Program-made: the position numbers and the translations under genes
The notes under the pieces: model-generated
Databases searched by the model: none
What the model saw: only the letters and a program-made list of their open reading frames with translations
What the model was told of the DNA's origin: nothing
Source: Candidatus Woesearchaeota archaeon
Lineage (GTDB): Archaea; Nanobdellota; Nanobdellia; Woesearchaeales; JACPBV01
Assembly: GCA_019323195.1 (NCBI GenBank)
Contig: JAHWHQ010000035.1
Span: 1 to 53,512, forward strand
Length of the DNA stretch: 53,512 bases
Direction of reading: 5' to 3'
In this document: positions 34,729 through 39,584 of the stretch, piece after piece
How positions within the stretch are numbered: position 1 is the first letter of the stretch
Layout: every line of letters starts with the position of its first letter

Positions 34729-34992
34729 ATGCAAAAATTAGAGGTTATCCATTATCCAAACCTGAAGACAGTATTAATGGTAGAGGAGGTTATAAAAAAA
34801 GCCAATAATCTCATGACACGGGAGCAACTAAAGAAGAAGCTTCCTGTAAAGATAATGCACCAGACATTAAATGTTATATTGAGATACCTGGAAGACAGCG
34901 GTAAAATACTTGATGGAAGAAAGGGCATATTATGGATATATAATCCCAGCCCAAAGTTGGATAAGGCAATAGAAGAAGGTGTTGAGCTATAA
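34729..34992 (+). CDS. putative antitoxin / small wHTH-like protein
   Basis: 87 aa. Its stop overlaps the ATG of the RelE-like gene (TAATG). AT-rich promoter-like sequence upstream. Confidence 0.5.
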   Translation: MQKLEVIHYPNLKTVLMVEEVIKKANNLMTREQLKKKLPVKIMHQTLNVILRYLEDSGKILDGRKGILWIYNPSPKLDKAIEEGVEL

Positions 34993-35369
34993 TGTTTAAG
35001 GGAAAACCTACAAAAGTGATTATCACAGGAAGAGCCAGGGAAGAGTTTGATGACCTAAATGAGGTAGTGGGAGAAGAAATTGCCAAAGGCATTACAAGCA
35101 GCGACCATCAGACATTGCTAAACTCAATAAAGCAGAAGATTGATTTGCTTAAGGTAAATCCTGAGTACGGCATACATATACCTAAAGACAGGGTTCCAAA
35201 AGAATATGTGAGGGATTATGATGTTGGCAATCTCTGGAAGATCAATTTATCCGGAGCCTGGAGGATGATCTATACTATAAGGGGGAGTGAAGTGGAGATA
35301 ATTTCTTTAGTGCTCGATATTATGAATCATAGGGATTATGAGGAAAGATTTAGGTATAAGGGAGGGTAA
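34992..35369 (+). CDS. RelE/ParE-family toxin-like protein
   Basis: C-terminal LWKINLSGAWRMIYTIRGSEVEIISLVLDIMNHRDYEERF fits the RelE/ParE core pattern. Confidence 0.6.
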   Translation: MFKGKPTKVIITGRAREEFDDLNEVVGEEIAKGITSSDHQTLLNSIKQKIDLLKVNPEYGIHIPKDRVPKEYVRDYDVGNLWKINLSGAWRMIYTIRGSEVEIISLVLDIMNHRDYEERFRYKGG

Positions 35370-35371
35370 AA

Positions 35372-36490: not shown

Positions 36491-37519
36491 ATGGATTTTA
36501 AGAGGATCTGCACCGTGTTTGGGCTTTGTGTTGCAGTTGTGTTAGTTGTCCTGGTAGTGATGGACAAGCACGGGTTTGCCTCCCTTTTTCTGCTTTTTGT
36601 GTTGACTGTTATCTTACTGCTGATAGGATCCGGAAATAAGATAACTACGCTGGTCCTGGATATATTAAATGGCAAGATAGAGATAAAGGCAGAAGATGCA
36701 GATGTCCAGGATATACATGATAAGGCTGAGAAGGAGATAAGTGAGGATAATGAGTTGTCTTCCGGAATGGCGAGAAGCGGGAAGGACAGGAGGAAAATAC
36801 CTTCTGGAACCAGACAGGTAGCTGCTGTAAGGAAGAGGATGAAGAAAGGGGCGTTAAGGTTTTTTATGGAGCAGGATAAGGACAGGCTTATCTCTTATTT
36901 AATAAATATCGAGAATGCTGTAATAGGCAGGATGGAGAGGCTGTATTCCAGCCCTTTCAGGAAGAAGCTGCTTATCAGCCTGGGCAGCAATAAAAGAATA
37001 TTCTTAGATGCTATTACAGGGTTTGACAATAAGGAGATACTTTTTGAGGTCAAGACCTTAAGGAGCAGGATAGGGGCAGACAGGTTTAAGAGGATTATAG
37101 GAACTTTTGTGAGGAAGGTGGAATCTTATGCTGAGATGAACTCTTCCAAGGATATCTTTGGAAGGCTGGTGGTGGTTCTTGATTACTGTGTTTTTGATGC
37201 TGGATATAGGGAGTATCTTAAGGGGGTGTTTGCTAAATACGCAAAGGGCCAAAGGTATGAGCTGGTATTTGAGGATATGGAGGATTATGCTGAATCTATA
37301 ACAGTGGCTGCAGATGATGCGGAATCATGGAGCATCAGGGGGTTTGCGCTTGGCAGGAACGGGAACTACAAGGATGCGATAAAGGCTTATGATAAGGCTA
37401 TAAGGATCAACCCTAAATATCCTGCAGCATGGCAGAATAAAGGAAAAGCTCTTGATAAGTTAGGCAGGCATAAGGAAGCGAAAGAGGCGTTTGGGAAAGC
37501 GCGGAAGCTTGCTGGCTAG
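36491..37519 (+). CDS. membrane-anchored protein with PD-(D/E)xK-like core and C-terminal TPR repeats
   Basis: Two N-terminal TM helices. FLDAITGFDNKEILFEVKT (D...E.K spacing). C-terminal TPRs: AESWSIRGFALGRNGNYKDAIKAYDKAIRINPKYPAAWQNKGKALDKLGRHKEAKEAF. Confidence 0.6.
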   Translation: MDFKRICTVFGLCVAVVLVVLVVMDKHGFASLFLLFVLTVILLLIGSGNKITTLVLDILNGKIEIKAEDADVQDIHDKAEKEISEDNELSSGMARSGKDRRKIPSGTRQVAAVRKRMKKGALRFFMEQDKDRLISYLINIENAVIGRMERLYSSPFRKKLLISLGSNKRIFLDAITGFDNKEILFEVKTLRSRIGADRFKRIIGTFVRKVESYAEMNSSKDIFGRLVVVLDYCVFDAGYREYLKGVFAKYAKGQRYELVFEDMEDYAESITVAADDAESWSIRGFALGRNGNYKDAIKAYDKAIRINPKYPAAWQNKGKALDKLGRHKEAKEAFGKARKLAG

Positions 37520-37628
37520 GGCATGATTCTTTGGTTTTTTTAGTAATCATCAAGTGATTAAAAAGACCCTGGAAAACAATAAGGTTTTTAAATGGATTCG
37601 GGTTTTCATAGGGAAATAAGGTGAGTTT

Positions 37629-39584
37629 ATGGGAAATAACTTTGATGCTTTACTGAAAGAGGAGTTAAGTATGCCTCAGATTACTGATGATTTGGGTAGT
37701 GCTATTTTACCTCAATTTACTCGTGGTTTGGGCAGTACTATTTTTCAGATTGATAGTTTTGATGCTGTTATTGCTAAGGCTTATGAGCAACATCCGGGTC
37801 TTAAAGAGAGGATTCGAAACATGGTCGGGGTTGATATAGAACCTTATATTGATGGTAACGGCGGAAGCATTCTTCCTCATCTGAAAGGGGTTATAGAAGA
37901 TTGCGGTGGTTTTGATCGTTTTCTTCGTTTTAGAGAATATGAGATGCAAGAAGAGAGAAAGGAGGAAGAGAAGAGATTTTCTAATATACGTTACGAAGGA
38001 TTATCAGAGTACGATGCTGGAAATATAGCTCCTGCAGATCTGTCTGGAGGGGATGTTCCCATTTTTTCCGAACCTCGGGATAATATCCGGCTGGTACATT
38101 ACGATGGCAGATCAGAGCCACTAGACACTAAGACAAGAAGTTATTTATTTTTGACTGAAATGTCAAATAAGCGTCCTTCTCCAGTATTTCTTAAAAAGGC
38201 GGTTAATTATGGTGCATCACATGGGCCTTCCGGACCAAGGAATAAGGTCACCTCGCTAGGTTATGAGGCAGGACCAATGGAGTATGATATCAATAGGCTG
38301 CCATCTAAAGAGTCCATAGGTGAAGGGCTTTTTGTTCCTTCTGATGTTCGTGAGCTTGTTGTTAACAGCAGTATTGAGAAGATTTATGAAAGGAATGAGG
38401 GCCTTAGGGATAAGGTCCAGGCATGTCTCAGATTTGACAGAGATACTATCCGGTCTTTTATTGATGGTGAGGAACATGACTTTTTTGGCCTAAAGGGGAT
38501 TATAGGAGAATTTGGAGGGGCAGAAAATTTTTACAGAGCATTGGATTATGAGAGAGAACAAGACCTGCAGTTAGAAAAAAATATAGCTTCTTTAGAACAG
38601 AAATACGCCAAAGAGGAAGCTTCTGAGTTACCGGCAAAGGATCCAACTCCTGTTATACTGGAGAAACGGGTTGAACCAAGTTTTGAGGAAAGACTAATAG
38701 AACATGAGACAGTAAAACCTGTTTCTAATCTTTTTTCTTCCTTATCTTCTGATGGTTTAAGTAGTATTATCAATGGATATGAGGGTAATGAAGAACCAAT
38801 TGCCTCTGCTTATGAAAATAAAAAGAAGACAGGGAAGAGTCTAAGCGAAACCCTGAATGACATGCTTAAAACACTGGATAGTTGCCTGGAAAAAACAACA
38901 CAGATTAATGATACGTTGGATAGGATCGGATCAAAAAAAGGATTAAATGAACATTCCGCGAACAGTGGTGAAGCTTCTGGCATATCTAAAATTGTTGATG
39001 AGGGAGAATTGGATTCTTCTGTTCAGACTCATTATGTTTCTGATTCTAATTGCAAAGAAAAAGCAAAGGAGGGGATTTATCAGAGGACTGTTAGCCGCCT
39101 TAAGAGAGGCATTGACAGTGCTAAACAATCTTATGGAGGAATTTCTGATGGTGTTCAGAGCAGGATTAAAGGTGCTAAGAACTGGCTTAGCGGTGTAAAA
39201 AGCAGATTTAAGGGATTATATTCTGGAAAAGAGGAAGCACATACTGGCTCATGGAATCTTGAGGAGCAGACTTTTAAGTATGTGAAGCATTTTGTGGGGA
39301 AGTATGGTGAGGGACCCGTGGTGGATAGCTTCTTAAAATATAGGAGGGGTGATGAAAATATTGAACCTGATCTGCGAGAAGCGATTGAACTTTTGGGTGA
39401 TAGGGAGTTTAATCTAGAACTGATCAAGGTTAAGGATGAAAAAGAAGTAATTCCCAGGGAAAAAAGATATATAAATCAAGCAGAAACCACATCATCTGCA
39501 AAGATTCTGAAATTAATTCTAGGGGATTATAGAACTCCTGATTATAAACCTAATGCTAAAGTTCATGCCGTTGCCAGGGGTTAA
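37629..39584 (+). CDS. hypothetical 651-aa protein with internal domain repeats
   Basis: ATG preceded by AAGGTGAG. The segments ...HPGLKERIRNMVGVDIEPYIDGNGGSILPHLKGVIEDCGGFDRFLRFREYE and ...NEGLRDKVQACLRFDRDTIRSFIDGEEHDFFGLKGIIGEFGGAENFYRALDYE are evidently homologous. Confidence 0.6.
   Translation: MGNNFDALLKEELSMPQITDDLGSAILPQFTRGLGSTIFQIDSFDAVIAKAYEQHPGLKERIRNMVGVDIEPYIDGNGGSILPHLKGVIEDCGGFDRFLRFREYEMQEERKEEEKRFSNIRYEGLSEYDAGNIAPADLSGGDVPIFSEPRDNIRLVHYDGRSEPLDTKTRSYLFLTEMSNKRPSPVFLKKAVNYGASHGPSGPRNKVTSLGYEAGPMEYDINRLPSKESIGEGLFVPSDVRELVVNSSIEKIYERNEGLRDKVQACLRFDRDTIRSFIDGEEHDFFGLKGIIGEFGGAENFYRALDYEREQDLQLEKNIASLEQKYAKEEASELPAKDPTPVILEKRVEPSFEERLIEHETVKPVSNLFSSLSSDGLSSIINGYEGNEEPIASAYENKKKTGKSLSETLNDMLKTLDSCLEKTTQINDTLDRIGSKKGLNEHSANSGEASGISKIVDEGELDSSVQTHYVSDSNCKEKAKEGIYQRTVSRLKRGIDSAKQSYGGISDGVQSRIKGAKNWLSGVKSRFKGLYSGKEEAHTGSWNLEEQTFKYVKHFVGKYGEGPVVDSFLKYRRGDENIEPDLREAIELLGDREFNLELIKVKDEKEVIPREKRYINQAETTSSAKILKLILGDYRTPDYKPNAKVHAVARG

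Follow-up and report, generated by a model that had tools for sequence, protein, structure and literature searches.

Five unrelated genes between glycogen synthase and debranching enzyme in a Woesearchaeota archaeon: a lineage-specific interruption that is probably a mosaic of separate acquisitions

In the genome of a Candidatus Woesearchaeota archaeon (NCBI GenBank assembly GCA_019323195.1), the genes for glycogen synthase (GS) and the glycogen debranching enzyme (GDE) are separated by five unrelated genes on the same strand. The window analysed here is the whole 53,512-nucleotide (nt) stretch of contig JAHWHQ010000035.1, and the interval between the two glycogen genes (34,616-39,663) is a lineage-specific interruption of a conserved GS-GDE operon at an insertion-tolerant position. 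The five genes are referred to by the lengths of their products in amino acids (aa): a small gene of 87 aa, a toxin-like gene of 125 aa, a gene for a phospholipase C (PLC)- and P1 nuclease-like protein of 357 aa, and two orphans of 342 and 651 aa. A preliminary description of the window, made from the letters alone, had placed five co-directional open reading frames (ORFs) in this interval, and the ORF list contains each of them at the coordinates given there, all on the plus strand (Table 1). The packing it had described is likewise seen in the sequence: the 87-aa gene overlaps the 125-aa gene by a single base (TAATG), 2 nt separate the 125-aa from the 357-aa gene, and the later gaps measure 45 nt (357-aa to 342-aa gene) and 109 nt (342-aa to 651-aa gene). 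Both flanking genes were recognised by Pfam as what they had been called. GS aligned over residues 5-595 with its relatives, at identities of up to 58%, and GDE over residues 1-589 with its counterparts located downstream of GS in the relatives.

Table 1. Features of the interrupted glycogen locus (coordinates of the window)
Feature	Coordinates	Strand	Basis
GT3-type glycogen synthase (GS), 596 aa, intact, upstream flank	32825..34615	+	Pfam PF05693 (Glycogen_syn), E=6.3e-160
AT-rich spacer, 113 nt, with TATA-like runs (tttatata, tatataaatatatata)	34616..34728	+	sequence inspection; GC ~0.36
87-aa protein, putative antitoxin (possible winged helix-turn-helix)	34729..34992	+	position; 1-nt overlap with the 125-aa gene
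125-aa protein, probable RelE/ParE-superfamily toxin	34992..35369	+	profile matches below cut-off
357-aa leaderless protein, Zn-dependent phospholipase C / S1-P1 nuclease superfamily	35372..36445	+	alignment, fold, profiles
342-aa orphan: hydrophobic N-terminus, middle domain, two tetratricopeptide repeats	36491..37519	+	hydropathy, Pfam
651-aa orphan, soluble, one internal duplication	37629..39584	+	ORF, Smith-Waterman
651-aa protein, repeat copy 1 (residues 47-114)	37767..37970	+	Smith-Waterman
651-aa protein, repeat copy 2 (residues 248-317)	38370..38579	+	Smith-Waterman
Amylo-alpha-1,6-glucosidase-type debranching enzyme (GDE), 590 aa, intact, downstream flank	39664..41436	+	Pfam GDE_C, E=5.6e-26

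Relatives of GS were collected by an exhaustive HMMER search, 25 of them were aligned, and the alignment was scanned against GTDB species genomes and JGI metagenomes, which gave 160 loci. The proteins of the window were compared with these loci by tblastn, with a cut-off of E<1e-4 for the five genes of the block, and 56 loci from DPANN archaea and bacteria of the candidate phyla radiation (CPR) with a GS at least 44% identical served as the main comparison set. GDE lies downstream of GS on the same strand in 30 of these 56 loci, and all eight of the closest relatives (GS identity 54-58%; metagenome-assembled genomes of Woesearchaeota and Nanoarchaeota) keep this arrangement, which bears out the earlier proposal that the block splits a functionally linked pair; the two genes are normally adjacent. 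In 14 of the 30 loci the gap between the two genes is at most 100 nt; it is about 250-280 nt in two, about 1 kb in seven, 2-3.2 kb in six and 5.5 kb in one. Where the gap is occupied, mostly pathway genes are found there (GalT-like HIT uridylyltransferase, NTP_transferase, PGM/PMM). A few gaps hold other cargo, such as isochorismatase and a P-type ATPase in locus L101; in locus L012 the cargo is a functionally uncharacterised protein of 634 aa. The window itself has no GalT, NTP-transferase or PGM gene of the kind present in the relatives' glycogen operons.

Homologues of the five block genes were absent from the GS loci at the cut-off used, which makes the 5-kb block a unique interruption of the conserved operon. 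The comparison also bears on the converse expectation, that these genes might be conserved core neighbours of glycogen genes: none of the loci compared showed them as such. A literature search on the interruption of this glycogen operon returned nothing. The GS-GDE interval of DPANN and CPR genomes is a recurrent soft spot, empty in 14 loci, otherwise filled mainly with pathway genes and in a few cases with unrelated cargo. The GT3-type GS and its pairing with GDE are common to DPANN archaea and CPR bacteria (Azambacteria, Paceibacterota, Parcubacteria; GS identity 47-49%), and remoter GS copies occur in Planctomycetota/Phycisphaerae, a phyletic pattern similar to the one seen for the PLC-like family of the 357-aa protein. 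In three related glycogen operons, the space between GS and NTP_transferase is occupied by an oppositely oriented gene for a protein of about 360 aa without a Pfam domain (L029 8610-9737, L101 12353-13432 and L105 11799-12887, each on the minus strand of its locus; mutual identity 47-62%), which may be an unrecognised component of the glycogen pathway.

Metagenomic origin, low coverage and the heterogeneous composition of the block would all be compatible with an assembly chimera, in which GS and GDE are truly adjacent and the block belongs elsewhere. However, an independent JGI assembly (L007) contains the tail of the 125-aa gene, the 357-aa, 342-aa and 651-aa genes, GDE and a GGDEF gene in unchanged order. 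Logan contigs from other public metagenome runs, three further ones in the case of the internal junctions, span 33330-35215 (GS into the 87/125-aa pair), 36439-36709, 37602-37836 and 39531-39783 without differences and thereby cross the junctions from GS to the pair, from the 357-aa to the 342-aa gene, through the spacer between the 342-aa and 651-aa genes, and from the 651-aa gene to GDE. No joint that skips the block was found among the Logan contigs, hence there is no sign of an insertion polymorphism. Given the independent assembly and the junction-spanning contigs, misassembly is very unlikely, and we regard the chimera as almost certainly wrong. For the region 31000-44000 of the window, contig fragments of 100% identity were present, at low depth, in four metagenome runs that belong to three studies; the sample labels are marine sediment, soil and sediment, and the dates 2021 and 2024. 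The host looks like a sediment-dwelling DPANN archaeon of the Woesearchaeota type.

Foreign origin was examined by a composition profile, as the preliminary description had proposed, here in the form of the G+C content at third codon positions (GC3). Host genes in the window range from 0.54 to 0.67. The block is heterogeneous (0.30-0.59) and four of its five genes are atypical: GC3 is 0.40 for the 87-aa, 0.42 for the 125-aa, 0.59 for the 357-aa, 0.50 for the 342-aa and 0.30 for the 651-aa gene, the last being the most atypical. By this measure the 357-aa gene is host-like, and a foreign appearance is seen for the 87/125-aa pair and for the 651-aa gene. A mobile island would be expected to be uniformly atypical, which the host-like 357-aa gene contradicts, and the strong spread argues against a single cassette and for several separate acquisitions. 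As expected of a mobile island, the block is absent from the same site in relatives. Pfam recognised no integrase or transposase domain in the five proteins, and no repeats were found at the block borders, only short repeats at chance level within the region.

Putative transcription signals can also be read from the sequence. The spacer upstream of the 87-aa gene would provide an archaeal promoter for the first three genes, which are probably co-transcribed; a GGGAGGG run resembling a Shine-Dalgarno sequence for the 357-aa gene lies in the 3' end of the toxin gene. The 342-aa, 651-aa and GDE genes each have a TATA-like sequence upstream, and a run of seven T comes after the 342-aa gene. These TATA-like sequences and the T-run suggest that the last genes lie in separate transcription units. 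Scans for sigma-70 promoters and intrinsic terminators gave results at chance level, with models that are unsuited to an archaeon.

For the 357-aa protein, 368 homologues were found at E<=1e-3. Those that are 60-76% identical come from Woesearchaeota/Nanoarchaeota, Parcubacteria/Patescibacteria and Phycisphaerae, and a second subgroup, which includes Chloroflexota, is about 40% identical. Between the domains, that is between DPANN archaea and CPR bacteria, identity is about 64%. The two motifs for which the protein had been called S1/P1 nuclease-like, GHAWVA (residues 5-10) and HYLADAHVPVH (residues 174-184), fall on invariant or nearly invariant columns of an alignment of 35 sequences. Invariant in this alignment are D69, H80, H174, D178, H180, H184, H197, D199 and E201, and H6 and W8 are nearly so. 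PF00882 (Zn_dep_PLPC) was matched by 26 of the 35 family members (best E=8e-6) and PF02265 (S1-P1_nuclease) by 11. The 357-aa protein itself reached 14.1 bits against PF00882, below the gathering threshold of 26.8. Such sub-threshold scores indicate a divergent new family that belongs to neither curated family.

An AlphaFold2 model of the 357-aa protein, built with the alignment, had a predicted local distance difference test score (pLDDT) of 89.5 and a predicted template modelling (pTM) score of 0.92. When it was compared with the PDB by Foldseek, the top 18 matches were without exception phosphatidylcholine-preferring PLC (PC-PLC) of B. cereus, clostridial alpha-toxins and the nucleases S1, TBN1, BFN2 and SmNuc1. 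B. cereus PC-PLC gave TM-scores of 0.60-0.65 (normalised to the target) at a probability of 1.0, the S1/P1 nucleases occupied ranks 14-18 with TM-scores of 0.39-0.49, and beyond this group nothing exceeded a probability of 0.11. By hhalign, H174, D178, H184, H197 and E201 were placed onto H118, D122, H128, H142 and E146 of a B. cereus PLC sequence that had been entered by hand. Three further correspondences were assigned by inspection, namely H6-A-W to H14-L-W, G-A-W-F-P-D69 to G-I-Y-A-A-D55 and G-G-H80 to A-S-H69 of PLC. Together these positions would supply the eight side-chain zinc ligands (His, Asp, His, His, Asp, His, His, Glu; five by alignment, three by inspection), seven of them invariant and H6 nearly so. 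The family starts with MK-x-I-x-HAW and has no leader, and residues 3-16 form a confidently predicted helix within the fold. Because of this leaderless start, a free N-terminal Trp1, the ninth zinc ligand of the secreted enzymes, is impossible here. The middle His of H-x3-D-x-H-x-P-x-H is S1/P1-like and H-x3-E is PLC-like. PDB sequence searches retrieved no PLC with the family profile and only chance-level matches with the 357-aa protein, and viral relatives were found neither in the viral fold library nor in IMG/VR.

Taken together, the motifs, the fold and profile matches and the leaderless start uphold the earlier description of S1/P1-like motifs without an export signal. On the basis of the model and the alignment, the 357-aa protein belongs, without a leader, to a new and uncharacterised family in the Zn-PLC/S1-P1 superfamily and is most likely a cytoplasmic phosphodiesterase with a predicted trinuclear zinc site; hydrolysis of phosphodiesters would be its reaction. 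Since PLC-like features (the fold, H-x3-E) are mixed with S1/P1-like ones (H-x3-D-x-H-x-P-x-H), the substrate could be either a phospholipid head group or nucleic acid. In seven other genomic contexts of homologues (41-76% identity) the gene stands by itself, and its neighbours differ from those in the window and from one context to the next. One homologue (L009) adjoins an archaeal ribosomal S13/S4/S11-RpoD operon and has genes for a proteasome subunit and for a beta-CASP/KH-domain RNase nearby; another (L004/L005) lies beside BipA, a cold-shock protein and Maf, and a further context includes DNA polymerase III alpha. The archaeal context of L009 together with that of L004/L005 places the family in both domains of life. 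A literature search for PLC-like enzymes in DPANN or CPR organisms found no paper.

The 87-aa and 125-aa genes had been described as a winged helix-turn-helix/RelE-like pair. Their layout agrees with this, as in RelE/ParE modules the small antitoxin gene comes first and overlaps the toxin gene, here by the single shared base. The 125-aa protein matched Pfam ParE_toxin (E=6.9e-4; 20.6 bits, cut-off 23), NCBIfam RelE_StbE (E=0.012; 16.1 bits, cut-off 27.9) and a PHROG RelE-like toxin (E=0.017). All three matches fall on one C-terminal region and are consistent with each other, and none in any library reached the curated cut-off. Apart from weak RelE-like matches, PHROGs returned nothing for the block. 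The C-terminus (WRMIYTIRGSEVEIISLVLDIMNHRDYE) resembles the usual RelE/ParE pattern. For the possible winged helix of the 87-aa protein there was a single weak match, to the N-terminal winged-helix region of AbiEi in PADLOC (E=0.026). PDB sequence searches with both proteins gave only chance-level matches, and the ParE gene of a related Woesearchaeota contig showed no similarity to the 125-aa protein. From layout and profiles, the two genes probably form a type II toxin-antitoxin (TA) pair of the RelE/ParE type. Such a pair would act as a selfish addiction module, in which the toxin may be an mRNA interferase or a gyrase poison neutralised by the small protein encoded upstream.

The 342-aa protein had been called a two-transmembrane protein with TPRs and a PD-(D/E)xK motif. 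By hydropathy its first ~60 residues are hydrophobic and can be read as two transmembrane helices (~7-24 and 29-47), and Pfam places two TPRs at the C-terminus (residues 277-340; TPR_1, E=1.4e-15), in agreement with this part of the description. The nuclease assignment fared less well: the D...ExK motif is present in the middle domain as D173-x12-E186-V-K188, a short motif that is frequent by chance, and a profile match to any PD-(D/E)xK family was not obtained. Pfam returned nothing for residues 91-276 even at E<=10, no nuclease match was found in NCBIfam, PADLOC, PHROGs or PDB sequences, and residues 1-276 found only themselves in a search of 5.8 billion proteins. A single-sequence AlphaFold2 model (pLDDT 53.8) was confident only at the TPRs, with values below 50 over residues 61-273, where it contained only helices.

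The 651-aa protein likewise found only itself in the protein search, and Pfam, NCBIfam, PADLOC, PHROG and PDB gave nothing (in the PDB, chance-level matches only). It has no transmembrane segment and a centre rich in Ser, Glu and Lys. A run of 651 stop-free codons at 39.5% GC would be very improbable by chance (~1e-21 as a rough estimate). Its earlier description as a repeat protein holds for one duplication of about 70 aa, which a blastp self-comparison overlooked and which was detected by Smith-Waterman alignment with shuffled controls (score 92 versus 28.9 +/- 5.1 for shuffles; z=12.3). A third copy was not significant by the same procedure, and a profile hidden Markov model built from the two copies found no further ones in the window or in 171 loci.

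On balance the block is probably a mosaic of separately acquired accessory genes that interrupt the glycogen operon, and not one functional system. The TA pair, the 357-aa enzyme and the two orphan genes would have arrived separately and left both GS and GDE intact. Each orphan apparently has its own TATA-like upstream sequence, one product being presumably membrane-anchored with two TPRs and the other soluble with the duplication, and GDE appears to have acquired or kept an AT-rich upstream sequence of its own. The preliminary description had instead suggested a defence or abortive-infection island. Spelled out, the TPR membrane protein would sense infection, the PLC/P1-like enzyme and a PD-(D/E)xK nuclease would be the effectors, and the TA pair would stabilise or regulate the cassette. 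The tight co-directional packing, the RelE/ParE-like toxin candidate, the phosphodiesterase fold, the D...ExK motif, the unusual composition seen in four genes of the block and the fact that relatives have nothing or metabolic genes at the site could all be cited for it, as could a restriction-modification (R-M)-like module nearby. However, the five proteins had no significant match in PADLOC-DB v2 (best E 0.012-0.026 to the unrelated models PrimPol via the TPRs, MTase_II and AbiEi; none at all for the 357-aa and 651-aa proteins), and no second genome with any two block genes together came to light in the homologue searches, the other contexts of the 357-aa family or the GS loci. The 357-aa gene has a native-like GC3 and stands alone elsewhere beside housekeeping genes, the PD-(D/E)xK reading lacks profile support, and the signals between the last genes point to their being transcribed separately. 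With no homologue detected for either the 342-aa or the 651-aa protein, a conserved system cannot be demonstrated. The island found no support in these comparisons, and we consider a single novel defence system quite improbable.

Several points weigh against the mosaic. The five co-directional, closely spaced genes could be one operon, and none of the curated thresholds is reached by the TA assignment. The PLC fold had Foldseek E-values of only about 1e-2, although the probability was 1.0 and the matches were consistent, and part of the ligand assignment depends on the hand-entered PLC sequence. With two orphans among the components there is some room, if little, for a private system, and a DpnI-like/methyltransferase module 5.7 kb downstream places defence-type genes nearby. 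A role of the inserted genes, or at least of the 357-aa enzyme, in glycogen or carbohydrate metabolism, for example as a sugar-phosphate or glycolipid phosphodiesterase, would fit their position and orientation inside the operon, the native-like codon usage of the 357-aa gene and the absence from the window of GalT, NTP-transferase and PGM genes, which are found there in relatives. Set against this, no homologue turned up in the 30 related GS-GDE operons and none of the seven other contexts of the 357-aa family contains glycogen genes, which leaves such a role highly improbable.

DPANN and CPR lineages lack de novo synthesis of lipids and nucleotides. The 357-aa family might therefore be conceived as a salvage phosphodiesterase that is exchanged among these ultra-small organisms. 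It would then remove the head groups of phospholipids scavenged from a host or break down nucleic acids that have been imported, and in this genome its gene would have been captured behind the TA pair. We hold this, or else a whole block that acts as a private new abortive-infection system, to be possible though rather unlikely, with the private system the less likely of the two. Should lipids or nucleic acids prove to be its substrates, the family would be relevant to the salvage of building blocks in organisms with reduced genomes. As a well-conserved leaderless branch of the superfamily common to CPR and DPANN, it is moderately interesting, alone among the parts of the block. The insertion itself is real but ordinary in kind. 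It also counsels caution in searches for defence systems, as a metabolic operon in which TA genes, motifs of nuclease type and a TPR protein come together can mimic a defence island.

Other genes of the contig complete the picture of the region. The module downstream of the block (45254-46917, plus strand) consists of an endonuclease of the DpnI-like, 'Dam-replacing' kind (PF06044 at E=4e-70, and DpnI_C) adjoining an N6_N4 DNA methyltransferase (E=6e-62). With GC3 values of 0.23 and 0.42, compared with ~0.6 for host genes, the pair is probably a horizontally acquired R-M-type module. A PocR-GAF-GGDEF protein of the diguanylate cyclase type (41450-43012, minus strand; GGDEF E=4e-41) has a host-like GC3 of 0.67 and shares the contig with an archaeal-type glycyl-tRNA synthetase and a FlaI-like ATPase, genes that otherwise give the contig a DPANN archaeal look; few archaea have GGDEF proteins. 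Transcribed divergently from the glycogen operon (28059-32512, minus strand) are the genes for a 1361-aa protein of unknown function and, overlapping it by 4 nt upstream, a 123-aa protein with weak matches to regulators of the ribbon-helix-helix type (NikR-like, E=0.032; CdrS-like, E=0.037). A FlaI/TadA-like secretion ATPase of 761 aa with an adjacent 727-aa protein without domains (5830-10306, plus strand) and a HerA/FtsK-like ATPase of 787 aa (25603-27966, minus strand) may belong to pilus or DNA-transfer machinery.

Compared with the Zn-dependent PLC enzymes (B. cereus PC-PLC, the N-domain of C. perfringens alpha-toxin, PF00882), which are its best structural match, the 357-aa protein has the same all-alpha fold and the ligand pattern H...D...H...H-x3-D-x5-H...H-x3-E. 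It differs in having neither a signal peptide nor Trp1 and in carrying about 110 extra residues, including a C-terminal helix of 48 residues. It is probably cytoplasmic and not a secreted toxin. With the S1/P1 nucleases (Aspergillus S1, Penicillium P1, plant TBN1 and BFN2) it shares the superfamily fold, and its motif H-x-x-[AG]-D-x-H-x-P-x-H, including the middle His, fits S1/P1 better than PLC. The nucleases resemble it less in structure than PLC does, their last ligand pair is H-x3-D where the 357-aa protein has H-x3-E, and the protein has no secretion signal, glycosylation context or N-terminal Trp.

With type II modules of the RelE/ParE kind, the first two genes share a small upstream gene that overlaps a gene of about toxin size (~100 aa), and the C-terminal profile matches. 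They differ in that the putative antitoxin belongs to no recognisable family and the toxin candidate has 125 aa, longer than the RelE/ParE norm because of an N-terminal extension. As to the GS-GDE operons of DPANN and CPR genomes, flanking genes and orientation are alike in the window and in the 30 related loci. The gaps of the relatives are empty or hold pathway genes, with other insertions now and then, whereas that of the window holds five unrelated genes and not one of the pathway.

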